Shown piece by piece: positions 3-27,476 of a DNA stretch of 64,000 bases (its first letter is position 1; every line of letters begins with the position of its first letter). Under the pieces are notes generated by a model. That model saw only the letters and a program-made list of their open reading frames with translations. It did no database searches and had not been told where the DNA came from. This DNA comes from an uncultured Alphaproteobacteria bacterium. GTDB taxonomy: Bacteria > Pseudomonadota > Alphaproteobacteria > Methylaequorales > Methylaequoraceae. The stretch covers positions 26,361-90,360 of the forward strand of contig CABYVV010000005.1 of assembly GCA_902522465.1 (NCBI GenBank). The letters run 5' to 3'. The position numbers and the translations under genes were made by a program.

Positions 3-512
3 AATTCATACGAATCTGAGGTTGGAACTTTTAAAAATTCATTGAAGACTGATACTAAAAACTTTCGTCAATTTCCAGAATGGGTAAAAAAAAATAAAAA
101 AATATTAGAAAATAAAAATATAGGAATATTTTGCACTGGTGGAATCAGATGTGAAAAAGCAAGTAGTTATATGTTAAAAATGGGTTTAAGAAATATATAT
201 CAACTAAATGGAGGAATAATAGAATATTTAAAAAAAACAAAAAACAAAAATAAATTCTGGAAAGGTGAATGTTTTGTTTTTGATGAAAGAGTAACACTTG
301 ATGAAAACTTAGAAAAAGGAAGTTATACCCAATGTTTTGCATGCAGATCACCTATCACCAAAAAAGAAAGAAAGTCATTGTTATTTAAGCCAGGAGTATC
401 ATGCCCTAAATGTCATGATATAAAAACTACAAATCAGAAAAAAAGATATAAAGAAAGACACAAACAAATTGAAATTGCCAAAAAAAAAAAAATTAGACAT
501 TTAGGTAGTTAA
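3..512 (+). CDS. trhO: Rhodanese-domain protein, TrhO/YceA-like (UPF0176, tRNA uridine(34) hydroxylase family). The 5' end is truncated by the window edge.
   Basis: Frame 3 is open from base 3. The rhodanese active-site loop CTGGIRCEKA and a C-terminal CxxC...CPKC zinc-ribbon-like tail are both typical of TrhO. The ORF track starts at the internal Met at 42. Confidence 0.6.
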   Translation, partial: NSYESEVGTFKNSLKTDTKNFRQFPEWVKKNKKILENKNIGIFCTGGIRCEKASSYMLKMGLRNIYQLNGGIIEYLKKTKNKNKFWKGECFVFDERVTLDENLEKGSYTQCFACRSPITKKERKSLLFKPGVSCPKCHDIKTTNQKKRYKERHKQIEIAKKKKIRHLGS

Positions 513-1570
513 TCACTGCCTAGTTTTGGTATTGAATATTTTTTCATTTTTTCGATTAAAGTTGTTCTATTTATTTTTAGACTGCGAGAGGCTTCTGTTA
601 CTGAACCCTTATTTTTCTTTAGAGCACCCTCAATCAAATTTAGTTCAACCTCACTAAGATGACGCCTAAGGTCAATTTTATCCATCATTTCAAACCATTT
701 TTTATAATCATTTGGATGAGGTAGAAAATTCATTTCAGTTTTTTCTGTTTTTATCTCTGTAAGTTCAGATGTCATTTCCCATAAAACATTTTTCTCATCT
801 TGATTATCAGGAAGATTGATTTTCAATAAATTTTCTTTGACATTTTTAGAAGTTATATTTTTTTTAGGGAATATTATAGCTGCCCTTTCAATTACATTTC
901 GTAGTTCTCTCACATTTCCTGGCCAAACATACTCCTGCAGTGCTTTGATGGCTGATGGATCAATTTGAGGTATAGAAGAACCACTTTTTTTTAACTCATC
1001 TAGAATGTGATCCACTAATACTGGAATGTCTTCTCTTCTTTCAGACAATGTCGGAATTTCGATAGGAAACACATTAATTCTGTAAAATAGATCCGCTCTA
1101 AAATGCCCTTCATCAATTTTTTTTTCTATATTCTGATGCGTTGCACAAATTAACCTTAAGTTGAGTTCAATTTCGTTTTTCCCACCAACGCGTTGAATTT
1201 TTCTAGTTTCAATTGCTCTTAGTAATTTAGCCTGAAGAGGAAGCGGCATATCCCCAATCTCATCTAAAAATAAGGTTCCGTTATCGGAAGATTCAAATCT
1301 TCCCTCTCGTCTTGAGTCAGCACCAGTAAATGCACCTTTCTCATGACCAAACAGTTCAGATTCTAATAGTTCTGATGGAATTGCTGCACAATTAACATTA
1401 ACCAAATCACCTTTTCTTTCTGATGAATTATGAATTGCTTTTGCAACAACGTCTTTTCCACAACCTGTTTCACCTCTTAACAAAACTGTTGAGTTAGACT
1501 GTGCAACCATACTCACTAATTTCTTTAATTGAATAGTTGCCTCACATTGGCCTTTTATTATATTTGACAT
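509..1570 (-). CDS. Sigma-54-dependent transcriptional activator. It has an AAA+ sigma-54 interaction domain and a C-terminal Fis-type HTH, but no N-terminal receiver or regulatory domain.
   Basis: Walker A GETGCGKD, the GAFTGA motif (EKGAFTGA), an arginine-finger region and a C-terminal HTH (RSLKINRTTLIEKMKKY). The protein begins directly with the AAA+ domain. Confidence 0.85.
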   Translation of the reverse strand: MSNIIKGQCEATIQLKKLVSMVAQSNSTVLLRGETGCGKDVVAKAIHNSSERKGDLVNVNCAAIPSELLESELFGHEKGAFTGADSRREGRFESSDNGTLFLDEIGDMPLPLQAKLLRAIETRKIQRVGGKNEIELNLRLICATHQNIEKKIDEGHFRADLFYRINVFPIEIPTLSERREDIPVLVDHILDELKKSGSSIPQIDPSAIKALQEYVWPGNVRELRNVIERAAIIFPKKNITSKNVKENLLKINLPDNQDEKNVLWEMTSELTEIKTEKTEMNFLPHPNDYKKWFEMMDKIDLRRHLSEVELNLIEGALKKNKGSVTEASRSLKINRTTLIEKMKKYSIPKLGSD

Positions 1571-1706
1571 TAGCTCACCTAAATGAATTTTATAATGTCA
1601 GAAAAATGACAATAATCAAATTTTAAAATTAAAAAAAAAAAAAAAATTATTTTAAGTCATTGATTTAGTTGTTAAAAAAATTGCAAAAAAAAAAAAATTA
1701 TTTATT

Positions 1707-1722
1707 TGGCAATATTTTTGCT
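1707..1722 (+). promoter_or_regulatory. Putative sigma-54 (-24/-12) promoter for the activator-fliE-fliF-fliG-fliH-fliI-fliJ operon.
   Basis: TGGCAA-N-TTTGC with GG(1708-09)-N10-GC(1720-21) spacing, 35 nt upstream of the start codon at 1756. It is preceded by two A13-A15 tracts. Confidence 0.5.
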
Positions 1723-1755
1723 TTCTAGGTTTTAGTAAAAAAAAAGGAATTAAAT

Positions 1756-2913
1756 ATGAAGGAAATATTTATAATTAAAGATTGCTTTGACTCTTATGAA
1801 GAGGTCCATAAGCATTTTTTAACAAAAGGTAATAATGTTAATGTATTAAGTTATGAAGAAGCAATCAATTTAAATTCTTCAAAATCAATAGTTGTAATTC
1901 ATCAAAAATTAGAAGAAAAAAAGGGTGGTAAATCAGAAATATTGAAATTTGCAAGGGATATTGGTTGTATTAAAATTATAACTATAAACTCTAACTATGA
2001 TAATGGATATTCAATTTGTAAAGAGATGGGTGGGGCATACATAAAGTTATCCTTCAAAAACATCGATGAAGTTATAAAAGAAATTATTTTCCAGATAATC
2101 TCAACTGAGAAATATAGTTTTTCAGATAAAAAAACAATCTGTCTTGTAAATATGGTTGAAAAGGTTGCAACAACTGACGTAACTGTTTTCATTCACGGAC
2201 CTACTGGAACCGGAAAAGAAGTAATTTCCAACCTTATACACAAGAAATCAGATAGGGCAGACAAACCATTTATTGCAATTAATTGTGCTGCTATCCCAGA
2301 AAATATGCTAGAAGCAATGTTATTTGGCCATGAAAAAGGGGCATTTACCGGTGCTTCCTCAGCAAATAAAGGGATTTTTAGAGCAGCTGATACAGGAACC
2401 CTATTATTGGATGAAATTTCTGAAATGCCATTGTCGCTTCAAGCTAAACTCCTAAGAGTCTTACAAGAAAAAAAGGTAACTCCTATTGGGGGTCAAAGAG
2501 ACATTGATGTAAATGTAAGGGTAATTGCAACTACAAATAGAGATATGTTGAATGAGGTAAAAGAGAAAAAGTTTCGAGAGGATTTATATTATAGATTAAA
2601 TGTTTTTCCAATTGAAACTCACAATTTATCTGAAAGACCAGATGATATTTTACCCATCAGCATTGCTTTACTGAATAGACATACTGAAGAAAGTTTTTTA
2701 CCTTATATAAGTGACGAGGCACAAAAAATTCTAAGAGAATACAGTTGGCCAGGAAACGTAAGAGAACTTGAAAATGTTCTACAAAGAGCAATAGTTCTAT
2801 GTGAAAACAATATAATAGATGAAAAAGACATAATGATTGATGTCTCAAAACAGAGTAATTTTTATAATAATATTCAAGAAAACTTATCAGAAAAAAAAGC
2901 AATACAAGCTTAA
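1756..2913 (+). CDS. Sigma-54-dependent activator. It has an N-terminal degenerate receiver-like (FleQ-type) domain plus the AAA+ domain, and appears to lack the C-terminal HTH.
   Basis: Walker A GPTGTGKE, GAFTGA (EKGAFTGA) and an ESFLPY...WPGNVRELEN region. The roughly 130 aa N-terminal domain has His rather than Asp at the expected phospho-acceptor position (VVIHQKL). The C-terminus ends soon after the AAA+ lid with no Fis-like helix-turn-helix. Confidence 0.8.
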   Translation: MKEIFIIKDCFDSYEEVHKHFLTKGNNVNVLSYEEAINLNSSKSIVVIHQKLEEKKGGKSEILKFARDIGCIKIITINSNYDNGYSICKEMGGAYIKLSFKNIDEVIKEIIFQIISTEKYSFSDKKTICLVNMVEKVATTDVTVFIHGPTGTGKEVISNLIHKKSDRADKPFIAINCAAIPENMLEAMLFGHEKGAFTGASSANKGIFRAADTGTLLLDEISEMPLSLQAKLLRVLQEKKVTPIGGQRDIDVNVRVIATTNRDMLNEVKEKKFREDLYYRLNVFPIETHNLSERPDDILPISIALLNRHTEESFLPYISDEAQKILREYSWPGNVRELENVLQRAIVLCENNIIDEKDIMIDVSKQSNFYNNIQENLSEKKAIQA

Positions 2914-2929
2914 AAATTTAGGAGAAAAA

Positions 2930-3268
2930 ATGAAACCAAGTCTTACAAATCTTAAACCAACAGTTACAATGCCCAGCAATCAAACTGAAATAAAAAATAT
3001 TCAAGAAGAGGTTGCTAACTTATCACCAAAAATAATTGAACCACAGGATGGAGGATTTTTGGAGAATATTAAATCAGCAATTCAAGAGGTTTCCGATACC
3101 CAAAAGCAAAGTGCCGAACTTACAAAAAACTTTGAACTCGGGCTAGAAAACGATTTAACCAAGGTTATGATCCAGCAACAATTGTCAAGTTTAGGGTTCC
3201 AGATGACTTTGAATGTAAGAAATAAAGTACTGAGTGCATATAAAGATATAATGAATATGCCTGTTTAA
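2930..3268 (+). CDS. fliE: Flagellar hook-basal body complex protein FliE.
   Basis: 112 aa. The C-terminus VMIQQQLSSLGFQMTLNVRNKVLSAYKDIMNMPV matches the FliE signature. The RBS GGAGAAAAAA lies immediately upstream. The ORF-track start at 2837 overlaps the upstream gene and was rejected. Confidence 0.8.
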   Translation: MKPSLTNLKPTVTMPSNQTEIKNIQEEVANLSPKIIEPQDGGFLENIKSAIQEVSDTQKQSAELTKNFELGLENDLTKVMIQQQLSSLGFQMTLNVRNKVLSAYKDIMNMPV

Positions 3269-3285
3269 ATTAAAAGGAAAAGATT

Positions 3286-5007
3286 ATGGCTGAAGACATA
3301 CAAACTGCTGAATTAGCAAAGACTCAAATAACCAATCAGGGAATTTTAGCAAATATTGGAAATTCACTTGAAAAAATAAAAAAATTCTCAAATGAACCCG
3401 CTGTTCAAAGATCAATTCCTGTTATGATTACCTTATTTGTAATATTCATAGGTTTAGTTTTTTTTATATCCTTTAGAGAACCATCAAGAACAACTCTATT
3501 TTCTGCACTACCAGAACACGAGAAATCAAGAGTCATGGACGTTTTAAGAGCTAATGGTATTGATGTATCAATCGATAGAACTACAGGTGAGATTTTAGTT
3601 CCATCTCCAGAATATTATGAAGCAAAAATGAAACTTGCAGCTGAAGGACTTCCAAGCTCTGTTCCTCAGGGATATGATGTTTTAGAGAAAATACCAATGG
3701 GAACTAGTAGATCAGTTGAATTTATGAAAATGAAACAAACGCAAGAAATCGAACTTGCGCGATCAATAAATGAAATAGCTAATATTGTTGGAGCTAGAGT
3801 GCATCTTGCAATTCCAGAAAAATCGGTTTTTGTAAGAGATTCTTCTCCACCAACTGCCTCGGTTTTTGTAAAATTAGCTGATGGAAGAGCCCTAGGCTTG
3901 GAACAGATTCGTTCAATAGTACATATTGTTTCTTCATCTATTCCAAACATGACATCAGATAACGTTACTGTGGTAGATCAATATGGTTCACTTCTATCTA
4001 AACCTGAAGATGATCCAAATCTTGCAATGACCGAAAAACAGTTGGCTCACAGAGTAAAAATAGAATCTATTTACAGGGAAAGAATTTTATCATTGGTTTC
4101 TCCTATCGTAGGAGCTGGAAATCTAACAGCTCAGGTTAATGTTGAAATGGACTTTACAAGTAATCAAACAACCGAAGAAATTTTTGATCCAGAAAGCATT
4201 TCAACTAGAAGTGAACAAAATAGTCAAGATGAGTCTACTGATAGACCAGCCAGAGGAGTTCCAGGTGCTGTAGCAAATCAAGCTCCACTTGCTGCGGATT
4301 TACAGGTGGCAGCCCCCGAAACTGGTGAGCCAGCGGAATTTAAACAAAGATCTTCTAGTAATGTGAAAAATTATGAAGTTAGTAAAAAACTTAGTACAAC
4401 AGTTGGACAGATTGGAAAAATTAAAAAAGTAAAAACAGCAGTTTTAGTCAAAAATAAAATCGTTGAAACTCCAGAAGGTACGATTTCGCAACCCATTAGT
4501 GACGAAGACAAAGAGAAAATTACCTCTTTAGTGAAAGAAGCAGTAGGTTTTAACGAAGATAGAGAAGATTCTATCGTAGTAACTAGTGGAGATTTTATTC
4601 AAGAAATGGATGTTATCTCAAAAAAATGGTATGAAGAATCTTGGTTTCAAAATATGATTGGACAACTATCAACTGTTCTTATTCTAGCAATTGTAACATT
4701 CGGAGCTTTAAAACCTCTGTTAAACAGAATTTTAGTACCATCAGCAGGAGTAGCAGGTGCGCCTGGTGGAGCTTCAGAAGCTGATCTAGAAGCTGAAGAA
4801 GCTGAAGATGAAGTCCAAGTTCAAGAAGGTGAATCTTTAGAAGATATTAAAGCTAAACTAAAACCAAAAAAATCAACAATCTCAGCAGATATGCTTGATA
4901 CAGCAAATACTTACGATGACAAGGTTGCTGTAATACGAATGATTGTTGGTGATGAAGCTGGAAAAGTTTCTAACGTATTCAGACAATTAATGAAAAAAGA
5001 TGTATAA
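3286..5007 (+). CDS. fliF: Flagellar MS-ring protein FliF.
   Basis: 573 aa. It has an N-terminal TM segment, a YscJ/FliF family core and a C-terminal TM segment, in the right position between fliE and fliG. Confidence 0.9.
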   Translation: MAEDIQTAELAKTQITNQGILANIGNSLEKIKKFSNEPAVQRSIPVMITLFVIFIGLVFFISFREPSRTTLFSALPEHEKSRVMDVLRANGIDVSIDRTTGEILVPSPEYYEAKMKLAAEGLPSSVPQGYDVLEKIPMGTSRSVEFMKMKQTQEIELARSINEIANIVGARVHLAIPEKSVFVRDSSPPTASVFVKLADGRALGLEQIRSIVHIVSSSIPNMTSDNVTVVDQYGSLLSKPEDDPNLAMTEKQLAHRVKIESIYRERILSLVSPIVGAGNLTAQVNVEMDFTSNQTTEEIFDPESISTRSEQNSQDESTDRPARGVPGAVANQAPLAADLQVAAPETGEPAEFKQRSSSNVKNYEVSKKLSTTVGQIGKIKKVKTAVLVKNKIVETPEGTISQPISDEDKEKITSLVKEAVGFNEDREDSIVVTSGDFIQEMDVISKKWYEESWFQNMIGQLSTVLILAIVTFGALKPLLNRILVPSAGVAGAPGGASEADLEAEEAEDEVQVQEGESLEDIKAKLKPKKSTISADMLDTANTYDDKVAVIRMIVGDEAGKVSNVFRQLMKKDV

Positions 5008-5030: not shown

Positions 5031-6080
5031 ATGGCTGAAAAAGCTAAGGAAGAAAGTAAGGAAGAAGAAGAAAAGTCACAATACGAGCAGCTAACTAGCA
5101 CTCAAAAATGTGCAATTCTAATGATGTTACTGGGAGAAGAAGAAGCTTCAGAAATTCTTAAAAACCTTGGACCAAAAGAAGTTCAACAGTTGGGTAAAGA
5201 AATGTACAACGTTCAGGGTTTAGATCAAGATACAGTAAACCGGGTTCTTGATGAATTCCTAGCAATAATAAAAACGCAAACTGATCTAGGTATGGGGTCA
5301 ACTAATTATATAAGAAATGTAATGACAAAAGCACTTGGAGAAAATAAGGCACAATCAGTTTTAGGGAGAATAACTCCAACTGAAAGTGATAAGCCAATTG
5401 AAATTTTAGATTGGATGGACGCAAGATCTGTTGCAGAACTAATTTCTGATGAGCACCCGCAGATTATGGCGTTAATAATTTCATACCTTGAAGCTGGTGT
5501 TGCAGCCGACGTTCTTACTCTATTACCCGAGGAAACACAGTCAGACATAATACATAGAATTGCTACATTAGAAACGGTTCAACCCGATGCACTGGCAGAG
5601 TTAGAGAGAGTCATGCAACTAAAGTTCAAAACAAATACATCTTTACGCGCATCATCTGTAGGAGGTGTAAAGGATGCAGCATCTATAATGAACTTTACTA
5701 AACAAAATATGGAACAAAGAATCATGAAAACACTGGGTGAGAAAGATAGAAACCTAGCGAAAGAAATACAAGAAAGTATGTTTACATTTGACACACTGAT
5801 TTTAATGGACGATAGAAGTATGCAAACACTTTTAAGGAATGTTGATCAAGAAATTTTAATCATTGCTCTCAAAGGAACAGAAGACGAATTAAAAGATAAA
5901 ATTTTTTCTTGTATGTCACAAAGAGCCTCTGCAAATATAAGAGACGAGATGGAGGTGCTTGGACCATTAAGATTAACAGAGGTTCAGGAAGCCCAAAAAG
6001 CTATCATTAATGTAGCTAGAACAATGTCTGATGAAGGAACTATTGTTCTTGCTGGAAGAGGTGGAGATGACTTTGTATGA
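5031..6080 (+). CDS. fliG: Flagellar motor switch protein FliG.
   Basis: 349 aa. The FliG middle and C-terminal domains are present and the protein ends ...EGTIVLAGRGGDDFV. Gene order also supports the call. Confidence 0.9.
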   Translation: MAEKAKEESKEEEEKSQYEQLTSTQKCAILMMLLGEEEASEILKNLGPKEVQQLGKEMYNVQGLDQDTVNRVLDEFLAIIKTQTDLGMGSTNYIRNVMTKALGENKAQSVLGRITPTESDKPIEILDWMDARSVAELISDEHPQIMALIISYLEAGVAADVLTLLPEETQSDIIHRIATLETVQPDALAELERVMQLKFKTNTSLRASSVGGVKDAASIMNFTKQNMEQRIMKTLGEKDRNLAKEIQESMFTFDTLILMDDRSMQTLLRNVDQEILIIALKGTEDELKDKIFSCMSQRASANIRDEMEVLGPLRLTEVQEAQKAIINVARTMSDEGTIVLAGRGGDDFV

Positions 6081-6967
6081 TGCCATTAAAAGAAAATGAG
6101 GAATCTGCTAATAAAGTAGAAAAAGTTTCTGGAGCATTAAGCACAGAAGAAATAGTAAGTTTATTAAGCAAAAGTAATAAAGATTTTATAAAAGAATCTG
6201 AGATTTCGTCCACCATAACAAATCTATTTAAAAAGATTACTCCAAAAATCCTTGCAAAAAAAAAAGAGGATGATGACTTAAAAATTAAAAATGAAACGGA
6301 AAAACAAACCGAAGAACTTCTTGAAGAAGTAAAACCTCAGGATATTGAAAATGACGAAAAAAAAGATCCTGTATTAGAAAAGAAATATACAGAAGCTGAA
6401 GCACAAAAATTAGCTAATGAATATGCCAAACAATATTACAACAATGGATACAAACTAGGGGTTAAGAAAACCACAGAAGAATTACAGAAAGGCGATATGG
6501 CTCTAGCTGTTACATTCAAGAAAACTGCTGATAATATCTTTGCGGTTACACCAGATTTTTCAAAAAAATTAACTCTTTCAATTAATAAGCTTATTTTAAA
6601 AATAACTAATGAAGTTTTAGGTTATGAAATTGATAACAATAACCCAATTTTTCAAAATAAAATAAAAGAACTTGTTAATTCAATTGAAAAATCAGTTAAT
6701 GCTGTGGAGATTTATCTTAATGAGCAAGATTTAAAATCAATTAGTGATTATAACAAACAAAATAATATTTCTTTTTCTTATAAATTACTCCCTGATTCAA
6801 AACTTCAAAGAGGAGATTTAAGAGTTAAATCTGGATCAATTGAAGTTGGAGACATCGTATCCAATAAAATTAATTTTTCTGATTCAAATGACTTAAATTT
6901 GAATTTAAAGTTTGATTCTAATAATGATAAATTAAGTAATCAACCAAAACAAAAACCTAATACTTGA
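6077..6967 (+). CDS. fliH: Flagellar assembly protein FliH, the negative regulator of FliI.
   Basis: It sits between fliG and fliI with a 4 nt overlap to fliG. The protein is charged and coiled-coil rich with a FliH-like C-terminal domain. The call rests mostly on position. Confidence 0.6.
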   Translation: MMPLKENEESANKVEKVSGALSTEEIVSLLSKSNKDFIKESEISSTITNLFKKITPKILAKKKEDDDLKIKNETEKQTEELLEEVKPQDIENDEKKDPVLEKKYTEAEAQKLANEYAKQYYNNGYKLGVKKTTEELQKGDMALAVTFKKTADNIFAVTPDFSKKLTLSINKLILKITNEVLGYEIDNNNPIFQNKIKELVNSIEKSVNAVEIYLNEQDLKSISDYNKQNNISFSYKLLPDSKLQRGDLRVKSGSIEVGDIVSNKINFSDSNDLNLNLKFDSNNDKLSNQPKQKPNT

Positions 6968-6968
6968 T

Positions 6969-8288
6969 ATGATTCTTGCTGAGAACATATTAAGGAATGC
7001 TGAAAAGCATAGAATAAGTAGAAATAGAATCTACAAAAGTAAAACAACAAAATTTGATGGAAAAGTTGTTGAATGCGATTCTTTTCCCTCGCCTATCGGA
7101 ACAATTTGTCAAATTGAATGTGATGATAAAACTTATGTAACAGGAGAAATTATAGGATTCAAGGAAAATAAAAATATAATCGCAGTTCATGAAATGAATG
7201 CCAATATAATCTTAGGATCTACAATCAAAGTTTTAAACTCATCAAATGATATCGAAGTCGGTCCTCAAATTCTCGGAAGAGTGGTCGATGCGTTTGGAAA
7301 ACCAATTGATGGAGGTGACGACAATATTGGACTAAATGAACTTTGGCCAATAAATGGAAAAAATATAAATCCAATGAACAGAAAACCAATTAATGAAGTT
7401 TTAGACGTTGGTATTAGAGCTATAAACTCATTATTTACAGTTGGAAGAGGCCAAAGGTTAGGAATAATTGCAGGCTCAGGTGTAGGCAAGTCCATATTAT
7501 TGGGTATGATGACAAAATTCACCAATGCTGATGTAGTTGTTGTTGCGTTAATTGGAGAAAGAGGAAGAGAGCTAGGTAATTTTGTATCAGAAATTTTGAA
7601 TGATGAATCAAGAAAAAGGACTGTAACTGTAGCTGTTCCAGCTGATAAATCTCCTTTGTTAAGAATAAAAGGAGCAGAACGAGCAACATCTATTGCCGAA
7701 TATTTCAGATCAAAGGGTAAAAATGTTTTACTAATCATGGATTCCCTTACAAGAATTGCTCATGCGAAAAGAGAAGTTGGTTTAGCATTAGGAGAACAAC
7801 CAACATCAAAGGGCTATCCTCCTTCAGTAATTTCTATGATTCCAAGTCTGATTGAAAGAACAGGAACTGGTTCCAAAGATGAAGGAACAATCACAAGTTT
7901 TTACACAATTCTCGCAGACTCTGATGACACAAATGATCCTGTCGTCGATACAGCTCGAGCAATATTGGATGGCCATATTGTTCTTTCTAGAGAACTGGCA
8001 CAATTAGGAATTTTTCCTGCAATAGATTTAAATCAATCACTAAGTAGAGTAATGAATTCCATAGTTTCTGATGAACACCAGAATAAATCTGAAATTATAA
8101 AGAAATTTTATTCAATATATCAAGAAAATAAAGATCTTGTTCTGATGGGCGGATACAATCAAGGACAAAATGCTGATATAGACAGTGCCTTGATAAATTG
8201 GCCTAAAATTTGCGAGTTAATCAAACAAAATTATAAGGTAAAATCTGATTTTAATAGTAGCTACGAAAGTTTAAATAAAATAAATTAA
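6969..8288 (+). CDS. fliI: Flagellum-specific ATP synthase FliI.
   Basis: Walker A GSGVGKS, Walker B LLIMDSLTR, and F1/T3SS ATPase-family similarity throughout. Confidence 0.9.
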   Translation: MILAENILRNAEKHRISRNRIYKSKTTKFDGKVVECDSFPSPIGTICQIECDDKTYVTGEIIGFKENKNIIAVHEMNANIILGSTIKVLNSSNDIEVGPQILGRVVDAFGKPIDGGDDNIGLNELWPINGKNINPMNRKPINEVLDVGIRAINSLFTVGRGQRLGIIAGSGVGKSILLGMMTKFTNADVVVVALIGERGRELGNFVSEILNDESRKRTVTVAVPADKSPLLRIKGAERATSIAEYFRSKGKNVLLIMDSLTRIAHAKREVGLALGEQPTSKGYPPSVISMIPSLIERTGTGSKDEGTITSFYTILADSDDTNDPVVDTARAILDGHIVLSRELAQLGIFPAIDLNQSLSRVMNSIVSDEHQNKSEIIKKFYSIYQENKDLVLMGGYNQGQNADIDSALINWPKICELIKQNYKVKSDFNSSYESLNKIN

Positions 8289-8702
8289 ATGAAAAAAAAT
8301 AAATACGATACTTTCTTAATTCTTAAAAAGCTAAAAAAAAATAAATTACTTAATAATTTGAACACACTGAGTATTGAAAAAGATAAAATTAAATTAGTCA
8401 AAGAAACCTTGCATGAAATGATAGATGCTTCAAATATTGATAATTTTGAAGAAACCTTAGGTTCTACATTAAAAGTAAGAGCTAATTTTAGGCAAAATTT
8501 AATGAACAAACTTGAAATTTCATCTAATAGGCAAAATCATTTGCAGAATGAGATCAACAACAATCTCTCTGCCATTGGAAAGATTGAAAAACAAAAAGAG
8601 AAAATTCTAGAAAAAAAAAAAATAGAAGAAGAAAAAAAGCAAAATCTCATCGAATTAAAAAAAGATAATTATTTTAAACCTAAAAATTTCATTCCTTTTT
8701 AG
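8289..8702 (+). CDS. fliJ: Flagellar export chaperone FliJ.
   Basis: A 137 aa coiled-coil protein immediately after fliI. The call rests on position and size. Confidence 0.6.
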   Translation: MKKNKYDTFLILKKLKKNKLLNNLNTLSIEKDKIKLVKETLHEMIDASNIDNFEETLGSTLKVRANFRQNLMNKLEISSNRQNHLQNEINNNLSAIGKIEKQKEKILEKKKIEEEKKQNLIELKKDNYFKPKNFIPF

Positions 8703-8705
8703 GAG

Positions 8706-8721
8706 TGGCACTATAATTGCA
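8706..8721 (+). promoter_or_regulatory. Sigma-54 promoter in front of the fliK-fliL-fliM-fliN operon.
   Basis: A perfect consensus, TGGCAC-tataa-TTGCA, directly after the fliJ stop and 24 nt before the fliK ATG. Confidence 0.65.
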
Positions 8722-8744: not shown

Positions 8745-10025
8745 ATGGTTGCAATAAATAATAATTTAAACGAAAAATTCAAAATTCTTACTTCAAAAAA
8801 CGCATTTGATCAAAATGATCAATTATTTGCGGAATTATTTGCATTGATGAATTCAAATGTTGTCAGCAGTAAAGAAAAAGAAGTTCTTCAGAATATCATC
8901 ACTGAATCAAATGAAAACTCGTCGGCAAAAAAACTTTTAGATTCAAGTCAAATCAATTCCATCAATAATACTTCAAAGACTTCTGTCAATGAAAATGAGT
9001 TAGCATTAGCCAAATCACTTGCGGAAATTTTTTATAAAGAACTTGGAATCGATGAAAATTCTCAATTGCCTGATAAGATTAAAGAGTTGTCGAATAAGGA
9101 AAATTTTAATATTAGACCAGATTTAAGTAAAAATGATGTTAAAGACCTACATAAATCATTAGATCTGTTTGAAGAAAAAGAGATTGAAGATAGATCACCA
9201 AGAAATTTAACAATCAAAATAGAAAAAAAAGTTTTTGACAATAGTAAAAAACAACATCATCAAATACAAATTGGTTCAAGTCTAGATGTAAAATTTAATA
9301 AAACTATTAATAAAGAACCAAAATTAAATATTTCGAAAAATGAAAAAATTTTAAATATTAGTCAAAATTCTGCTCAAGTAGAGAAAAAAATAAAAAAGAA
9401 AAATAAACAACTTGGTCAAAGTTCAAAAAGTGTATTCGAGGATATTAAAACACAAATAAATGAGGCCAAAGGAGATATAAAAACAGCACGAGTTAATAAT
9501 ATAAAAACACAAACTCCAAGAGATAATAAAATCTCAATTAAAAAGGAATCCTTTGAAAAAAATGACACTAAGACATTGGATAACAAACAAACTTTCGCAA
9601 ACCTTAACAATAAAGAATTTTTAAATTTGCTAGAAAGTAGTTGGGGAGAGAAGTTTTCTAAAATAATCAAGAATTCAGTAAACAATGGTAATAATAAAGT
9701 AGAAATAGAACTCAAACCCCACAATTTAGGAAAACTTAATTTAGAAGTTTCACTAAAAAACAATAAAACTTTCATTAACATCAGCTCGGAAAATCAAGAA
9801 GTTGTAAATATACTGAATGAAAACCTTCCTCGCTTTACTGAAATAATTGACAAAGAAAATAAATCATTTTCAAGTTTTGTTAATACTAATAATCAAAATG
9901 GTAACTTCGGTGAAAACAAAGAAAAGAAAACTGTAATTTCACAGGACAACTTAATAAAAAAGAAAAAGAATATTGAATCAAAGATTAATAAAATTAGTAA
10001 TCATAATATTGATGTGAATGCTTAA
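8745..10025 (+). CDS. fliK: Flagellar hook-length control protein FliK.
   Basis: A low-complexity N/K/S-rich N-terminal region and a C-terminal Flg_hook-like domain (VEIELKPHNLGKLNLEVSLKNNKTFINISSENQEV..NENLPRFTEII). It sits after fliJ. Confidence 0.65.
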   Translation: MVAINNNLNEKFKILTSKNAFDQNDQLFAELFALMNSNVVSSKEKEVLQNIITESNENSSAKKLLDSSQINSINNTSKTSVNENELALAKSLAEIFYKELGIDENSQLPDKIKELSNKENFNIRPDLSKNDVKDLHKSLDLFEEKEIEDRSPRNLTIKIEKKVFDNSKKQHHQIQIGSSLDVKFNKTINKEPKLNISKNEKILNISQNSAQVEKKIKKKNKQLGQSSKSVFEDIKTQINEAKGDIKTARVNNIKTQTPRDNKISIKKESFEKNDTKTLDNKQTFANLNNKEFLNLLESSWGEKFSKIIKNSVNNGNNKVEIELKPHNLGKLNLEVSLKNNKTFINISSENQEVVNILNENLPRFTEIIDKENKSFSSFVNTNNQNGNFGENKEKKTVISQDNLIKKKKNIESKINKISNHNIDVNA

Positions 10026-12090: not shown

Positions 12091-12168
12091 CGTCATCTAT
12101 TTGACGTCAATATTTTAAGTTTTTTTTTTTTCAATAAAATCAATTGTTTAGATAACTTTATTTATAAA

Positions 12169-12184
12169 CGGCAAAGTTCTTGCA
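12169..12184 (+). promoter_or_regulatory. Putative sigma-54 promoter for fliO-fliP-fliQ-fliR-flhB.
   Basis: CGGCAA-agttc-TTGCA with GG(12170-71)-N10-GC(12182-83) spacing, about 35 nt upstream of the fliO start. Confidence 0.5.
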
Positions 12185-15748: not shown

Positions 15749-15935
15749 CTGCAGCATTTGTATGCATTTTTATGTGACATACAAAAAAAATTTTCCTTAC
15801 GGATGCAAAGCATTCGGAATAATATCAAAAAATAACCCATATTCCGAAATTAAAAAAGTTTCTGGCACAAATTGTGCACTATTTTCAAAAAAAATAAAAA
15901 ATGATAAAATAAAGATAAAAGGAAGAATTGCATGA
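15735..15935 (+). CDS. Hypothetical small Cys-containing protein, possibly a zinc ribbon. It may be spurious.
   Basis: A 66 aa ORF with CSIC...GC...NC residues. A sigma-54 promoter lies inside it, and it was kept only because the genome is so compact. Confidence 0.2.
   Translation: MNQNNCSICMHFYVTYKKNFPYGCKAFGIISKNNPYSEIKKVSGTNCALFSKKIKNDKIKIKGRIA
15863..15879 (+). promoter_or_regulatory. Sigma-54 promoter for the three-gene operon of unknown function (15932-18053).
   Basis: TGGCAC-aaatt-GTGCA with GG(15864-65)-N10-GC(15876-77) spacing, about 55 nt upstream of the ATG at 15932. Confidence 0.55.
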
Positions 15936-16657
15936 CACAACAACTTAATGCAATGCAAGAAAGCATAAAGATAGCGCTTGACGCAGCAGATGCTGCTACT
16001 GATGTAACATCTGAATACAAAAGAATAAAAAATGAATATTTAAAAACGGAGCAAAAAATGAAAGAAATCCATAAATATACTACTATCATTTTTTCGGGTT
16101 CTATTGCGACAGCAGTAATTGCAATAATCTTAACAGGATTATTATATTTTAAATCTCTATCAGAGCTAGAGGAGATGACGAGTACTAGTAGAGAAGCACT
16201 AGTTGTATTTGCTGAAAATGTTGAAAATGTTAATAAAGCAGTTGATAACATGAACTCTAGTCTTGCAAGACACACTGACCTACTCAATGCAAGCGAAGAA
16301 ATGAAAACTAAAATCGAAGAACTTTCCTCTGCCATTAATTCTAATGATAAGAAGCTAATGATTAACTTATCCAAAGAAATTACAAATTTATCTAGCGGTT
16401 TATCTAAATCAATAAAAAACGAAACCGAAAAGCTCGGAAAATCAATTCAGGAGTCAGGAGTTATGACTTCAGCTAGTGTTAATAAAGAAATTGGAAAGTT
16501 ATTGAAAGATAATAAAAAAAACCAAAATGTTAAATTATTAAAAGAACTTTCTAACAGCACTTCTTCGCTAAATGCAGCATTAGAGGCAATTTCAAGTCAA
16601 AATAAGCTTTTAGTTAAAGAAATTAAAGACCAAAAAGAAAACATTACTTTCCCATAA
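15932..16657 (+). CDS. Hypothetical membrane-anchored coiled-coil protein with a single TM segment near residue 50-73.
   Basis: 241 aa. It has a TM segment (TTIIFSGSIATAVIAIILTGLLYF) followed by a long heptad-rich S/N/K/E region. It is the first gene behind a sigma-54 promoter directly downstream of flhB. Confidence 0.6.
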   Translation: MTQQLNAMQESIKIALDAADAATDVTSEYKRIKNEYLKTEQKMKEIHKYTTIIFSGSIATAVIAIILTGLLYFKSLSELEEMTSTSREALVVFAENVENVNKAVDNMNSSLARHTDLLNASEEMKTKIEELSSAINSNDKKLMINLSKEITNLSSGLSKSIKNETEKLGKSIQESGVMTSASVNKEIGKLLKDNKKNQNVKLLKELSNSTSSLNAALEAISSQNKLLVKEIKDQKENITFP

Positions 16658-16661
16658 AAAA

Positions 16662-17444
16662 ATGGCTGAAAAAGAAGAAGGAAATTTTCTAATAAAGATA
16701 GATAAATTAGTCAATGGGAGTTATGCATTCAAGGTCTTCCTTAAACCAAATGATATCATTGTAGCTTTAGACAACCAGTTCTACACTTTTGGAGAAAAAC
16801 AATTAACCTCTGACCTTAAAGAAATAAAAACAAATCAACAAAAAGCTATTCTAACAGTTCTTCGTGATGATATTTTTTTTGACTTAAAAGTTGAAAAAAG
16901 CCTTGGTTGTAAGTTCGTGACAACTACCAAAGATGAAACTACCAAAATTAAGTCTTTATATTCTTCCAGAAAAATTTACGAAACTGAAGAACTTAATGAA
17001 TATATTGCTATGCGAGATGTTTACAGAAATTATGAAATAATAGAAAATTCGAGTTCATTATCAGCGGGAATTTTTCCTCCCTTATGGCTTGCTTACTCAC
17101 AAAAATGGTGGGTGCTATTTTTATTAGTTGCGATCATGGGAATTTCTCTTTGTGTAAATTCATACCTTTTTTTATTGGGTTGGTTGCTCACCTCTATATA
17201 TTGCTACAAAGCTCAACTGAATTTGCTTTTTAGCTTTTCTATGCTTGAAGGAAAAGTTTTTTGCATGAAATTGGTTGCTAGCTCAATGGATGAAGCACAA
17301 AAAATAGTTAGACAACTTGATCCAAAATCTAAATTCAAATTCACAAAACTTCCAAATCCTCTAATTGAAGAAGTAGACGAAAAAAAGGACAAGAAAGAAG
17401 ATAAAGAAAACATTGTTGATGAAAAAGAAACTGTAATAGTGTAG
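16662..17444 (+). CDS. Hypothetical membrane protein with an N-terminal PDZ-like soluble domain, two TM helices and an acidic C-tail.
   Basis: 260 aa and translationally close-coupled to the upstream gene. The TM region is WWVLFLLVAIMGISLCVNSYLFLLGWLLTSIY. Confidence 0.55.
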   Translation: MAEKEEGNFLIKIDKLVNGSYAFKVFLKPNDIIVALDNQFYTFGEKQLTSDLKEIKTNQQKAILTVLRDDIFFDLKVEKSLGCKFVTTTKDETTKIKSLYSSRKIYETEELNEYIAMRDVYRNYEIIENSSSLSAGIFPPLWLAYSQKWWVLFLLVAIMGISLCVNSYLFLLGWLLTSIYCYKAQLNLLFSFSMLEGKVFCMKLVASSMDEAQKIVRQLDPKSKFKFTKLPNPLIEEVDEKKDKKEDKENIVDEKETVIV

Positions 17445-17453
17445 TATCAACTC

Positions 17454-18053
17454 ATGGTTGCAGATAAATATACTATACAAGCCGAGACTTTGATGAAGGC
17501 TGCAATTGAAGATTACACTGAAATAATTCAAGAAGTAAAATCTTCAGATGCAAATCTTACAACACTTAAAGGAATCCGAATAAATATCCAAGGAAAACCA
17601 AGAAGGTTAGTTGATGTTGGAGATATTAAAAAAACTGAAAATGAAAATGTTGTTCAAATACTAGTTTTTAATACTGATCATATTCCACTTCTAACCGAGA
17701 AGATTGATGAAGTAGAATTTAATTATGAAGTAGATGGACAATTTATTAACACAGACTTACCTGAACCAGGTTACAAACAATTAATGGAAGTAGTCGATGA
17801 TCTAAATAGAAAGAAAAATTCTGCCAATGCAAGATTGACAAAAGCCAAATCAGAAGCAACGACTAGAGCAAGAACAGCTCTTGAAAATGATTTTATTTCA
17901 CAGGGGGTTGCTAATGCTGTCTCGAGAAAATGTTCTGAAATGTACGAACTATACTCATCCCAAATAGACGAACTTACAATGCAAAAAATCAATGATATTT
18001 TAGGTGATGAATATTTTGAAAAATATAAAAAAGAAGAGTTAGACTTAGAGTAA
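17454..18053 (+). CDS. Hypothetical soluble protein, the third gene of the sigma-54 operon.
   Basis: 199 aa with balanced composition and no recognised domain. Confidence 0.55.
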   Translation: MVADKYTIQAETLMKAAIEDYTEIIQEVKSSDANLTTLKGIRINIQGKPRRLVDVGDIKKTENENVVQILVFNTDHIPLLTEKIDEVEFNYEVDGQFINTDLPEPGYKQLMEVVDDLNRKKNSANARLTKAKSEATTRARTALENDFISQGVANAVSRKCSEMYELYSSQIDELTMQKINDILGDEYFEKYKKEELDLE

Positions 18054-18054
18054 A

Positions 18055-19008
18055 TTAAAGTTTTAAATTCAAATTTGATCCTTTAATTTTTAATTCTTGA
18101 TTAAGATATTTTTGTTTCATAACATTTTTATTATCCTGCATATTAGCTTTTTCATTTAATTCATTGGGTTGCCATATTGGATAATCAAAGTTTATCTCCC
18201 TAAATTGCTGAATCTTATTTCTATCTACTTCATCCACCTTTTGAGAAACATCAATTTTCTTTTTCTCAGTATTTACAAAAGGTTTTATATCAACTTTTTT
18301 ATCATAATTTGTTGGATTTTTTTGAATTAGTTTTGGAATTTCTCTATTGGAATCTTTAAGATTATTTTCATATCTTGAAGCAGATTTCAACAAATCGAAA
18401 CTAGCCAACTCTTTATTATCTTTTTCATTAGTGATAGATTCTTTGATTGAACTAATTTTATTTTGTTTATCATTTTTTGTTAATTCAGCATTAATAGAGC
18501 TAGAACTTAACTGACTCCTTCTCCACCATTCTCCAGTTTCATTTTTGGTATAATATTTAAGGTTAGTATTATTTTTTTTGTTTTCAGCTACATTACTATT
18601 TTCAAAATTCTTTTCTTTGTCTTTCCATAGATTACTTATTCCACTGGCATCAAGAGCAAGTTCAGTTGGAGTTTTGTCAAAGATTTTATTAAAAACCCAA
18701 TTTCCAAATCCAACCATTGCCCCTATTGGGCCACCGTACATAAATCCACCCAGACTATTTTGAATGAGATCTCTATCAGATTTATCATCATCAGAGTTCA
18801 TACTTGAGTAAATACCACTTACAAGAGGAAGATTTTGTAGTGGGTTTACAAGACCTCTAAACCAATCCCAAAATGACGATGTAGCTGTTTGATCTTTATT
18901 TTCTTGATTATTACTAATAGAAGTCTTTGTTTCTAAATTTTCATTAATTTTTTTAATTTGAAACTTTTGATTTTTAATTGAATGAAATGGGCTGTCTTGA
19001 ATATTCAT
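18055..19008 (-). CDS. Hypothetical protein, the last gene of the motA-motB operon.
   Basis: 317 aa with a 1 nt gap to the motB stop. It has a Gly-rich hydrophobic patch (GGFMYGGPIGAMVGFGNWVF) and no recognised domain. Confidence 0.55.
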   Translation of the reverse strand: MNIQDSPFHSIKNQKFQIKKINENLETKTSISNNQENKDQTATSSFWDWFRGLVNPLQNLPLVSGIYSSMNSDDDKSDRDLIQNSLGGFMYGGPIGAMVGFGNWVFNKIFDKTPTELALDASGISNLWKDKEKNFENSNVAENKKNNTNLKYYTKNETGEWWRRSQLSSSSINAELTKNDKQNKISSIKESITNEKDNKELASFDLLKSASRYENNLKDSNREIPKLIQKNPTNYDKKVDIKPFVNTEKKKIDVSQKVDEVDRNKIQQFREINFDYPIWQPNELNEKANMQDNKNVMKQKYLNQELKIKGSNLNLKL

Positions 19009-22373: not shown

Positions 22374-22559
22374 AATTAAAATAATAAGATAAATTCAAAA
22401 ATTTACTAGGAATATAAGCATTTCAAAAGTTTTTTTATATTTATTTTTTAAAAAATACATTAAAATTCAAGTCAAAATTCTGACTTCCCAAACATGTCAA
22501 ATTAAAGTTTTGCATTTTTTTTAAAAAAATTGTGAAATAATCATGAAAGGATAAAAATT

Positions 22560-24026
22560 ATGCAAATTTCACAGAATCTTAAGTTAAAGCAGAGTCAATC
22601 ACTAGTTATGACTCCTCAACTTCAACAAGCAATAAAATTACTTCAACTTAACAATCTTGAGTTAAGCAACTTGGTTAACAAAGAATTAGAAGAGAACCCG
22701 TTTCTTGAAAATGAAAATGAAAGCGTTGAATTAGAGGATAACAAAAATAATGAATATGAAGAAACAAATGACCTAAAGGATTCTTTTGAAAATGGTGAAT
22801 CTATTTCAGATGAACCAAAAAATGAAGATTATGAAAATAGATGGGATACCGAAAATAATTATGAAAGTTTTAAAAAGGGAAATTCTTTAGATCATAATGA
22901 TGTTGGAAGTGTAATAGAACAAACTCTTAGTAATAAAGTCTCACTGAAGTCTATTATTCAAAGCCAAGCTGATCTCCAATTTCAATCTAAAGAAGATAAA
23001 AGAATCTCTGAAATTTTAACAGATTATATCGATGAGAATGGATGGATTACAGAAAACTTAGTTAATATTTCAGAATTCAGTGGTTTTAAAATTTCTGAGA
23101 TTGAAAGAATTTTAAAAATTATGCAAACATTTGAACCTGACGGAATTTTTGCAAGGAATTTAAAAGAATGCCTTAAAATTCAACTAAGAAACAAGCAAAT
23201 GCTTGTTAACACATCTGAAGTAATAATAGATAATTTAGAAATGTTAGGTAATGGAAATATTAAATCACTTCAAAAGCTAACGTCCCTTAAAGAGGAAGAA
23301 CTTAGAGAACAAATAAAAATTATTAGGTCTTTAGATCCAAAACCAGGTAAAAAATATTCAGATGATAATTCAAATATCTTTCATCCTGATGTTATTGTTT
23401 CGAGAGTCAATTCCGATTGGTCTGTAGAACTTAATGAAAGCACTCTCCCCAAGATAACTATTAATGAAGACTACGTGAAAGAAATTGAAAGTCTCAAATG
23501 CAAAGAATCAGACAAAAAATTTATTAATGAATCTCTAAATTCAGCTAAATGGTTATTAAAAGCCATTCAACAAAGAAATTTAACTACCTTAAAAATTAGC
23601 TCTGAAATAGTTAATCAACAGAAACAATTCTTTGAAAAAGGCAAGAAATTCCTTAAACCAATGGTTCTAAAGGATGTGGCCAAAAAAATTAATATGCATG
23701 AAAGTACAGTTAGTAGAGTAACTTCAGATAAATTAATGCTTACTCCACGAGGAATCTTCGAAATGAAATTGTTCTTCAGTGCCTCAATTAGTAGTACAAA
23801 AAAAGGTGAGACTCACTCAGCTGAATCTGTGAGAGAATCACTAAAAAAATTAATAAGTTCTGAACCTGTAAATAACCCCTTGAGTGACGAAATGCTTGTG
23901 GAAAAGCTACAAGACGAGGGCATCGATTTAGCGAGAAGAACGGTTGCAAAATATAGAGAATTATTAAATATTCCAGCATCCTCTGTGAGAAGAAAAATAA
24001 TGAAGATTCAAAATATTAACTTATAA
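22560..24026 (+). CDS. rpoN: RNA polymerase sigma-54 factor RpoN.
   Basis: An N-terminal region I (MQISQNLKLKQSQSLVMTPQLQQAIKLLQLNNLEL), a core-binding domain, the HTH and the RpoN box (ARRTVAKYRE). Confidence 0.9.
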   Translation: MQISQNLKLKQSQSLVMTPQLQQAIKLLQLNNLELSNLVNKELEENPFLENENESVELEDNKNNEYEETNDLKDSFENGESISDEPKNEDYENRWDTENNYESFKKGNSLDHNDVGSVIEQTLSNKVSLKSIIQSQADLQFQSKEDKRISEILTDYIDENGWITENLVNISEFSGFKISEIERILKIMQTFEPDGIFARNLKECLKIQLRNKQMLVNTSEVIIDNLEMLGNGNIKSLQKLTSLKEEELREQIKIIRSLDPKPGKKYSDDNSNIFHPDVIVSRVNSDWSVELNESTLPKITINEDYVKEIESLKCKESDKKFINESLNSAKWLLKAIQQRNLTTLKISSEIVNQQKQFFEKGKKFLKPMVLKDVAKKINMHESTVSRVTSDKLMLTPRGIFEMKLFFSASISSTKKGETHSAESVRESLKKLISSEPVNNPLSDEMLVEKLQDEGIDLARRTVAKYRELLNIPASSVRRKIMKIQNINL

Positions 24027-24097: not shown

Positions 24098-24268
24098 TTA
24101 TGAATATCTAACTCTCTTAAATTCTTTAGTAGAATGATCTAAAAAATATGATAGAGGAAACACATCTGTCTTTACGTGTTTATCTTCGTCAAAATGAGTT
24201 ATCTTTATCATGGGATTTAATGTTGTTACACTATAATTTTTTGTATTAGATTTAATTTCTTCTTTCAT
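24098..24268 (-). CDS. Hypothetical 56 aa protein, not in the ORF track.
   Basis: MKEEIKSNTKNYSVTTLNPMIKITHFDEDKHVKTDVFPLSYFLDHSTKEFKRVRYS. A strong AGGAG RBS lies 7 nt upstream, and the gene is co-oriented with the upstream lytic transglycosylase. Confidence 0.3.
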   Translation of the reverse strand: MKEEIKSNTKNYSVTTLNPMIKITHFDEDKHVKTDVFPLSYFLDHSTKEFKRVRYS

Positions 24269-24320: not shown

Positions 24321-24926
24321 TTAAATCTTTTCTTTCTCTAAAATTTCCTTAAAAAACTTTACCTTTTGCTTATTTTTTTCAAAATAATTAGTTTTAATAA
24401 TTATTTTTTTTTGCCTTAAATTATTCCAAAAAGAGTATACTTTTTTTAAATATATTTTCTGCCTATACGGGATCGATGAATGATATCTGGAGATAGCTTC
24501 ATTCCAAGATTTGTGCCTCTTAAATAATTTATATAAGAAACTAGCTGCGTATTTTACATTTTGTTCAGGTTCAATCATCTGAGATACATTTTCAAAATTA
24601 TTCAGATGGTATTTAGTATTGATTTGCATGCATCCAACATCAATACTTTTTTTATCAGCATTTTTTTCTAAATAATTTAATACATCTTCTTTCCTATCGA
24701 AATAAATTGACTTACCCGATACGTTTAATGTCCAGGGCCATGATGAAAAACCATTTTTTTCTTTTTTTATGCCGGATTCTACCAAAGAAATTGAAGTCAG
24801 AAGGTTATTAGGTAAATTAAAAGCTTTACCATATTTTTCAGTATAAAAGTTACAACTTTTTATATTTTCTGAATTTGAATTAGTGTAAGGAAATATAAAA
24901 AAAAATAATGTGATAATTTTTTTCAT
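24321..24926 (-). CDS. Secreted lytic transglycosylase of the SLT-domain family.
   Basis: A signal peptide, the SLT catalytic region (LTSISLVESG with the catalytic Glu) and the downstream motif IDVGCMQIN. Confidence 0.7.
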   Translation of the reverse strand: MKKIITLFFFIFPYTNSNSENIKSCNFYTEKYGKAFNLPNNLLTSISLVESGIKKEKNGFSSWPWTLNVSGKSIYFDRKEDVLNYLEKNADKKSIDVGCMQINTKYHLNNFENVSQMIEPEQNVKYAASFLYKLFKRHKSWNEAISRYHSSIPYRQKIYLKKVYSFWNNLRQKKIIIKTNYFEKNKQKVKFFKEILEKEKI

Positions 24927-27050: not shown

Positions 27051-27473
27051 ATGTTTTCAAGAGACTCTGATAAAGTATCCAAAACCTCAACCTCATCTAG
27101 CGTTATAGGTACGGAAATGCAAATTAATGGCAATATCAAGTGCAGTGGTAAACTAGTTCTTAAAGGAATGGTAAAAGGTAACATAGAATGCGAACACGTT
27201 CACATTTCAGCAGAGGGAACCCAAACAGGAAATATTAAGGCAATCGAGTGTATTATAGGAGGTAAGTTTACAGGAGACGTAGTCGCCGATTCACTGGCAT
27301 TTGAATCCAATGCAAATATTAAAGGAAATATGTATTATAATAGTCTGAGCGCAAGACCTGGATCAAATCTTGAAATTCACCTCTTTAGGGGGCTTGAAAA
27401 AAGAATTGAAGATAAAAGTCCAACTAAAGATAAAACAAAAAAAAGCACAAATAAAAAAAATAAAGGAACCTAA
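27051..27473 (+). CDS. Bactofilin (DUF583) paralogue 1.
   Basis: Repeating beta-helical windings G-x-I/V-x-G...(INGNIKCSGKLVLKGMVKGNIECEHVHISAEGTQTGNIKA...) and a K-rich C-tail. The start may instead be the ATG at 27114, because the ATG at 27051 sits at the predicted transcription start. Confidence 0.8.
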   Translation: MFSRDSDKVSKTSTSSSVIGTEMQINGNIKCSGKLVLKGMVKGNIECEHVHISAEGTQTGNIKAIECIIGGKFTGDVVADSLAFESNANIKGNMYYNSLSARPGSNLEIHLFRGLEKRIEDKSPTKDKTKKSTNKKNKGT

Positions 27474-27476
27474 AGT

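Follow-up and report, generated by a model that had tools for sequence, protein, structure and literature searches.

How is a flagellar gene cluster controlled when its two sigma-54 activators each lack a different domain? The question arises at the left end of a 64-kb stretch of DNA (64,000 nucleotides of contig CABYVV010000005.1, about 29% GC; hereafter the window) from an uncultured marine alphaproteobacterium, where two divergent genes, which we call A (minus strand) and B (plus strand), are separated by 185 bp of intergenic DNA. A preliminary description of the window had noticed two divergent sigma-54 activators at this place, and Pfam confirmed both, A at 509-1570 and B at 1756-2913. 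Probably the two genes form a master switch of the FleQ/FleT type, with two activators, for a flagellar cluster of the Fla1 type (gammaproteobacteria-like), and work by the mechanism proposed below.

Gene A encodes a FleQ-type bacterial enhancer-binding protein (bEBP) of 353 amino acids (aa). Our Pfam scan, which covered the open reading frames (ORFs) of the window up to about 45.4 kb, placed its AAA+ domain (Sigma54_activat) at residues 6-171 (1058-1555; E 3.9e-68), its lid (AAA_lid_14) at residues 177-255 (806-1042) and a helix-turn-helix (HTH) domain, HTH_8, at residues 305-345 (536-658; E 1.1e-10). No N-terminal regulatory domain was matched at Pfam E<=1, as had been claimed from the sequence, the AAA+ domain starting at residue 6. 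There is no room for such a domain in A, because an in-frame TGA lies 10 codons 5′ of its ATG and the gap to B is 185 bp. In a profile comparison the closest solved relative of A was Pseudomonas aeruginosa FleQ, of which residues 149-484 were best aligned (E 5.6e-84), and A therefore corresponds to FleQ minus its N-terminal domain. Indeed, compared with FleQ and FlrA (481-491 aa), the 353 aa of A lack the N-terminal FleQ domain of about 140 aa.

Gene B encodes a FleT-type enhancer-binding protein of 385 aa, in which the Pfam scan found an AAA+ domain (Sigma54_activat) at residues 126-287 (2131-2616; E 3.2e-69) and a lid at residues 293-368 (2632-2859). They are preceded by an N-domain of about 120 aa (1756-2124), a candidate pseudo-receiver that has no Pfam match over residues 1-125. 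B ends 17 residues past the lid, and its sequence matched no HTH family at Pfam E<=1, so that the C-terminal HTH is missing here, as it had been reported to be, and it is missing in all relatives of B too. The fliE ATG (2930) lies 17 nt past the B stop codon, which leaves no room for a missing domain. The closest solved relative in the profile comparison was the AAA+ domain of Vibrio cholerae FlrC (E 4.5e-93), the next family being 15 orders weaker (3.5e-78). The AAA+ cores of A and B are 44% identical, and the Walker A, Walker B, GAFTGA, arginine-finger and sensor II motifs are intact in both; in B and more than 100 of its relatives they are strictly kept.

Could these domain losses be artefacts of a frameshift, of a wrong start codon or of a decaying pseudogene cluster? 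Our scan of species-representative genomes yielded, from single-cell and metagenome-assembled genomes of uncultured marine Alphaproteobacteria, about 21 loci. The divergent A/B pair occurs in every one of them whose contig extends far enough, with A at 354-360 aa and carrying the HTH, and B at 381-388 aa and lacking it. In the database, more than 100 clusters were found for each of A and B (more than 200 proteins together), at 68-97% identity and constant length, the A family having 353-360 aa. Because architectures and lengths are conserved across loci and database proteins, a frameshift or a pseudogene is excluded. The stop codon 10 codons 5′ of A, the gaps of 185 bp and 17 nt and the intact catalytic motifs speak against an artefact as well, and we leave it next to no probability. 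In short, neither an HTH in B, nor a regulatory domain in A, nor a frameshift was found, and frameshift, mis-called start and pseudogene alike are ruled out by lengths and architectures conserved in more than 20 loci.

The system with which the pair has to be compared is FleQ/FleT of the Fla1 flagellum of Cereibacter (Rhodobacter) sphaeroides (Poggio et al. 2005; Pena-Sanchez et al. 2009; both as represented in the passages of PMC7277832, PMC11999139 and PMC10084136 that cite them). In this species FleQ together with RpoN2 activates fleT-fliEFGHIJ, FleQ alone being sufficient for PfleT, while FleQ/FleT hetero-oligomers activate the class III promoters, for which both proteins are needed (PMC7277832, PMC11999139, PMC10084136, PMC11655674). 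FleQ of C. sphaeroides has no N-terminal regulatory domain (PMC9542535). FleT has no DNA-binding domain; on its own it fails to activate flagellar sigma-54 promoters (PMC11999139), and it has been named an ortholog of FleR (bioRxiv 10.1101/2021.08.29.457346). The likeness to our locus extends over several features: fleT-fliEFGHIJ begins, behind a sigma-54 promoter, with the gene of an HTH-less activator, as the operon of the window begins with B; the HTH-bearing partner is without a regulatory N-domain, as A is; and a dedicated rpoN2 lies in the fla1 locus (PMC7277832), in parallel to the rpoN gene of the window (22560-24026).

The preliminary description had called the pair reminiscent of FleQ/FleT, and the link that we found is stronger than that. 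B shares 49% identity with C. sphaeroides FleT in residues 44-366, and the fleT ortholog of C. sphaeroides WS8N (P0122; L081/L082 10001-11137) heads fliE-F-G-H-I-J-K-L-M-N, in the gene order found behind B. In a neighbour-joining tree of the AAA+ cores, B falls with FleT of the Rhodobacteraceae, among them the gene before fliE in Cereibacter johrii, and the sister group is gammaproteobacterial FlrC. Finally, when the N-domains of the marine clade were compared with those of Rhodobacteraceae FleT, hhalign matched residues 1-102 with a probability of 96.6% and an E of 6.3e-10. On the strength of this identity, the shared gene order, the placement in the tree and the N-domain match, B can be taken as an ortholog of Rhodobacteraceae/Cereibacter FleT, and the A/B pair, judged from its sequences, is the FleQ/FleT system rather than something merely similar to it, and not a new kind of regulator.

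For A, the same tree gave a grouping with A-like genes that adjoin fleT in Rhodobacteraceae, and gammaproteobacterial FlrA/FleQ as sister group. These A-like genes have the same architecture at 366-375 aa, and the A/B adjacency itself recurs in four Rhodobacteraceae species (loci L037, L039, L041 and L045), while in Cereibacter and Thalassovita a che operon stands upstream of fleT instead of an A-like gene. A thus appears to be of the FleQ/FlrA type, its tie to C. sphaeroides FleQ itself running through such proxies. In the gammaproteobacterial loci, FlrA has 481-491 aa and FlrC has 454-483 aa with an HTH, the two being co-directional with a kinase-sized gap between them. The window would then hold the alphaproteobacterial, Fla1-type version of the FlrA/FlrBC module, in which A lost its N-domain, B lost its HTH and the kinase is gone. 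A would be the DNA-binding master activator, derived from FlrA/FleQ by loss of the N-domain, and B, to all appearances derived from FlrC/FleR minus its HTH and kinase, is predicted to be unable to bind DNA.

In the same survey we came across tandem flagellar-type sigma-54 activators in Steroidobacteraceae and related metagenome-assembled genomes (L059, L064, L069, L071, L074, L076 and L079, at about 2450-4990 of these loci). Their products have 385-419 aa and 326-353 aa, both apparently without an N-domain and with tails long enough for an HTH, and these pairs appear to be another reduced FlrA/FlrC arrangement.

One claim of the preliminary description did not survive the comparison, namely that A and B partition their domains differently from FleQ and FleT. 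The contrast goes back to an imprecise description of FleT in the literature, since reviews present FleT as devoid of both regulatory and DNA-binding domains and as the only such bEBP (PMC7175178, PMC3162934, PMC10084136). In C. sphaeroides WS8N the gene is annotated with 378 aa, and about 45 nt before the ATG of this long ORF stands its sigma-54 promoter, TGGCACGATCCCTGC. In C. johrii the fleT frame is open and conserved upstream of the internal Met, and nearly all Rhodobacteraceae FleT orthologs have 375-430 aa, N-domain included. Given the 378-aa gene, the promoter upstream of it, the open frame and the homology of the N-domains, B and FleT share the same domain partition, and the descriptions of FleT as free of an N-domain appear imprecise.

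Real differences from C. sphaeroides remain. A and B are adjacent and divergent around one shared 185-bp region, in contrast to C. sphaeroides, where fleQ lies more than 10 kb from fleT. The residue at the acceptor position of the N-domain is H in B, mostly D in the clade of the window and S in Rhodobacteraceae. The host of A and B is also quite another organism, an uncultured marine alphaproteobacterium of about 29% GC. Its assignment to AEGEAN-169/HIMB59 found no support, the word 'flagellar' being absent from the genomic description of that clade.

Which of the two activators controls B? The intergenic region suggests an answer. A palindrome of the form GTCA-N6-TGAC, GTCAGAAAAATGAC (1597-1610, inside ATGTCAGAAAAATGACAA), is our candidate for the upstream activating sequence to which A would bind. 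It is found 27 nt 5′ of the A ATG and about 100 bp 5′ of the B promoter, its centre being about 128 nt 5′ of the predicted B transcript start. Compared with the P. aeruginosa FleQ box GTCaNTAAAtTGAC (PMC6120874), a Pseudomonas consensus, it fits all specified positions but two. The sigma-54 (-24/-12) promoter of B-fliEFGHIJ, TGGCAATATTTTTGCT (1707-1722, plus strand), has one mismatch to TGGCAC-N5-TTGCW and lies 34 nt before the B ATG. Between the palindrome and the promoter we found a site resembling that of integration host factor (IHF), TAAGTCATTGATT (1653-1665), whose reverse complement, AATCAATGACTTA, fits the IHF consensus, WATCAANNNNTTR.

We aligned the A-B intergenic regions of 15 loci and ran a pattern scan on 21 loci of the clade. 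Of the 21 relatives, 20 have the GTCA and TGAC half-sites without any change, amid diverged AT-rich spacers, and all 15 aligned sequences keep them. The alignment contains three invariant islands, which are the palindrome (TGTCAGAA..TGACA), the TAA....TG core, made up of the TAA and TG of the IHF-like site, and the -24/-12 elements. The scan found the promoter in 20 of 21 loci, between -46 and -53 relative to the ATG; its TTGG and TTGCTT columns are invariant in the alignment (15/15), including the locus that the scan missed. Exact GTCA-N6-TGAC sites occur three times in the window against 0.36 expected, and all three are in flagellar intergenic regions, before B, fliO and rpoN. The second (12092-12105) is found 64 nt before a sigma-54-like site, CGGCAAAGTTCTTGCA (12169-12184, plus strand), upstream of fliO-P-Q-R-flhB. 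The third (22471-22484) is 76 nt before the rpoN ATG with no sigma-54 site between the two, and hints that A may also control rpoN.

Such a layout reads as the classic arrangement of enhancer, bending site and sigma-54 promoter, and suggests that the B operon is activated by A, the HTH-bearing partner. The observation that B heads fliE-fliJ behind a sigma-54 promoter of its own stands, and the next sigma-54 promoter is found only before fliK. The autoregulation by B that was taken to follow from it does not, since B has no DNA-binding domain and the conserved FleQ-box-like palindrome points to A. Any feedback of B on its own operon would be only indirect, on the C. sphaeroides model through A titrated into mixed rings. 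A itself may be self-regulated, given that the palindrome is 27 nt from its ATG; we make no such claim, because matches to the sigma-70 consensus are at background level (14 against 13.1 in shuffled sequence). The intergenic region also holds two poly-A tracts, at 1628-1646 (16 A) and 1686-1698 (13 A), with similar tracts in the same places in related loci, and these may contribute intrinsic DNA curvature between enhancer and promoter.

We propose the following sequence of events. Oligomers of A would bind the palindrome, and DNA bending at the IHF-like site would bring A to the B promoter, so that the sigma-54 promoter of B-fliEFGHIJ could be activated with the cluster's own RpoN. As B accumulates it would, by analogy with C. 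sphaeroides, join A in mixed AAA+ rings. By the same analogy, the effect of the rings would be to turn A towards later sigma-54 promoters, such as those of fliK, fliO and motA, and to damp the promoter of B itself. The N-domain of B could modulate this switch without phosphorylation.

Several points weigh against this reading. C. sphaeroides fleQ is not found within 10 kb of fleT, and the orthology of A to FleQ is carried by proxies. The FleQ-box consensus of Pseudomonas has weak predictive power of its own (PMC6120874). At a tolerance of one mismatch, GTCA-N6-TGAC is not enriched in the window (12 sites against 12.4 expected), and we therefore report exact sites only. In the full-length AlphaFold2 model of B, the AAA+ domain has a mean pLDDT (predicted local distance difference test) of 66, a low confidence from which no interface can be inferred, and this led us to use a model of the N-domain alone. 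Moreover, activators without a DNA-binding domain that work alone are known, namely CtcC and FlgR (PMC3162934), which brings up the possibility that A and B are independent and act in sequence, as in Vibrio and Pseudomonas, with homo-oligomers of B activating the later promoters from solution in the manner of FlgR. The AAA+ domain of B is indeed nearest to that of FlrC, and its ATPase and GAFTGA motifs are all intact. Against it, B behaves as an ortholog of FleT, which alone is inactive at flagellar sigma-54 promoters (PMC11999139). No histidine kinase gene adjoins the A/B pair or occurs among the window ORFs scanned (to about 45.4 kb), and the acceptor residue is not conserved, so that control of the FlrBC or FlgSR type is absent. 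All in all we find independent action rather unlikely.

B could also be mainly an anti-activator, which would poison or titrate rings of A in a negative feedback on its own operon and have no positive role at later promoters. The lack of a DNA-binding domain in B and the probable dependence of its promoter on A would suit such a role. A pure inhibitor, however, would have no need of the GAFTGA and ATPase motifs that are strictly conserved in B and more than 100 relatives, and FleT is needed for class III expression in C. sphaeroides (PMC7277832, PMC10084136). We thus hold an anti-activator to be improbable, and the FleQ/FleT-type switch with mixed rings to be the preferred reading.

If B enters mixed rings with A, what does its N-domain do? 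It had been described as a degenerate, receiver-like domain, and by our comparisons it is weakly receiver-like. No Response_reg match was found by Pfam in residues 1-120 at E<=1, and the comparison with the receivers of gammaproteobacterial FlrC was not significant (hhalign E 0.025-0.7). A phmmer search of the N-domain against 1.84 billion representative proteins gave 28 matches, among which there was no bridge to other families; nearly all of them were short proteins, most aligned from their own residue 1, and are truncated copies of the FleT-type family. For residues 1-123, AlphaFold2 gave a confident model (pLDDT 86.8; predicted template modelling score, pTM, 0.82) with the order beta1-alpha1-beta2-alpha2-beta3-alpha3-beta4-beta-beta5-alpha5, in which a strand replaces helix 4. 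Foldseek found no match to this model in the PDB at E<=1e-3; the best-scoring structures were alpha/beta folds of the flavodoxin-like kind, and among the first 50 about 14 were receivers, with template modelling (TM) scores of at most 0.63/0.67.

The replacement of the phospho-acceptor Asp by His, which had been given as a mark of B, is true of this sequence (His49), and yet does not define the family. His49 is located at the C-terminal end of the predicted strand beta-3, where receiver domains have their phospho-acceptor Asp; hhalign puts it one residue off. Among 117 sequences of the window clade this column holds D in 78, H in 17, N in 16 and S in 4, and among 118 Rhodobacteraceae FleT sequences it holds S in 106 and A in 9. 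The positions of the receiver Thr and Lys are likewise not conserved in FleT-type N-domains. Because acceptor, Thr and Lys columns all vary, phosphorylation is not conserved in the FleT-type family. In view of the descent of B from FlrC, its N-domain is most simply read as a receiver that has degenerated heavily, though this is short of proven; it probably acts as a pseudo-receiver, independent of phosphorylation, and modulates assembly. A bolder suggestion, which we put forward tentatively and with some doubt, is that N-domains of this type are conserved phosphorylation-independent pseudo-receivers throughout the family, C. sphaeroides FleT included, and form the missing regulatory input of the FleQ/FleT switch. 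If this were true, the N-domain could control whether FleT joins FleQ in mixed rings, or it could couple the transition from class II to class III to an assembly signal, replacing the lost FlrB/FleS kinase.

Other two-activator systems and HTH-less activators resemble the pair in part. With FlrA/FlrB-FlrC of Vibrio and FleQ/FleS-FleR of Pseudomonas it shares the AAA+ domains, that of A being near FleQ/FlrA and that of B near FlrC; B also occupies the same place as FlrC/FleR directly upstream of fliE, and the palindrome resembles the FleQ box. Unlike FlrC/FleR, B has neither an HTH nor a recognisable receiver with a conserved Asp, no kinase gene lies between A and B, and the two genes are divergent instead of co-directional. 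HrpR/HrpS of P. syringae are likewise paralogous enhancer-binding proteins without canonical regulatory domains, which act only as a hetero-oligomer (PMC4145663, PMC9542535). However, both keep their HTH, they are tandem paralogs and they control type III secretion, whereas only one partner has an HTH in the A/B pair, and A and B seem to have come from different flagellar regulators. FlgR of Helicobacter/Campylobacter and CtcC of Chlamydia have a receiver-type N-domain and an AAA+ domain and, like B, no HTH (PMC3162934). In contrast to B, which has no Pfam receiver match and no conserved acceptor position, they have true phosphorylatable receivers and cognate kinases and act alone.

The comparison extends the FleQ/FleT paradigm, among very few mixed sigma-54 activator systems, from one purple bacterium to an abundant, uncultured and genome-streamlined lineage of marine alphaproteobacteria and to many Rhodobacteraceae. 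The family-wide conservation of the N-domain suggests that the textbook view of FleT as an AAA+-only protein merits re-examination. The understanding of how FleQ/FleT-type systems work is unchanged. The compact 185-bp control region, with its palindrome, IHF-like site and -24/-12 elements, is directly testable.

Behind B, the genes fliE-F-G-H-I-J follow directly and co-directionally on the plus strand, with spacings of 0-24 nt or short overlaps. fliE (2930-3268) was identified from the ORF list and a FliE Pfam match; fliF (3286-5007), fliG (5031-6080), fliH (6077-6967), fliI (6969-8288) and fliJ (8289-8702) were named from their size, their order and the C. sphaeroides Pfam table. From this arrangement we infer that B-fliEFGHIJ is co-transcribed as one operon. 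The longest fliE ORF would begin at a TTG (2837; 2837-3268) and run across the last 77 nt of B; translation more probably starts from the ATG at 2930, for which there is an AGGAG ribosome-binding site. Directly after fliJ, the sigma-54 promoter TGGCACTATAATTGCA (8706-8721, plus strand), a perfect match to the consensus, precedes fliK (8745-10025, plus strand), and here the B-fliJ operon may end and a fliK unit, perhaps of a later class, begin.

Further along the cluster are fliK-L-M-N-O-P-Q-R-flhB, motAB and an rpoN of its own (22560-24026, plus strand), which encodes a sigma-54 of 488 aa with Pfam domains Sigma54_AID, Sigma54_CBD and Sigma54_DBD. Sigma-54-like sites number 27 in the window against 15.3 expected, and the best ones stand before flagellar genes. 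Other good sites are located before fliO, the ORF at 15932, motA and genes at about 24.3, 24.9 and 27.0 kb. Within the region 15863-18053, the sigma-54 promoter TGGCACAAATTGTGCA precedes two ORFs (15932-16657 and 16662-17444), neither of which has a Pfam match, and a minus-strand ORF of 317 aa adjoining motB (18055-19008) has no Pfam match as well; all three are candidates for lineage-specific flagellar proteins. Further on, good sigma-54 promoters were found before an ORF of 56 aa (24098-24268, minus strand), before an SLT-domain FlgJ-like gene (24321-24926, minus strand) and before two bactofilin genes (27051-27833, plus strand). Bactofilins under apparent sigma-54 control near a flagellar cluster may relate to polar placement.

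Two further observations concern genes outside the flagellar cluster. At 30957-33986 (minus strand) an ORF of 1009 aa has a weak, partial match to phosphoenolpyruvate carboxylase over residues 132-612 (E 1.6e-19) and would represent an atypical or divergent form of this enzyme. At 42671-44889 (minus strand), a Methyltransf_33 (EgtD-like) gene adjoins a DinB_2/FGE-sulfatase (EgtB-like) gene, a pair that is predicted to serve ergothioneine-type biosynthesis in this streamlined genome.

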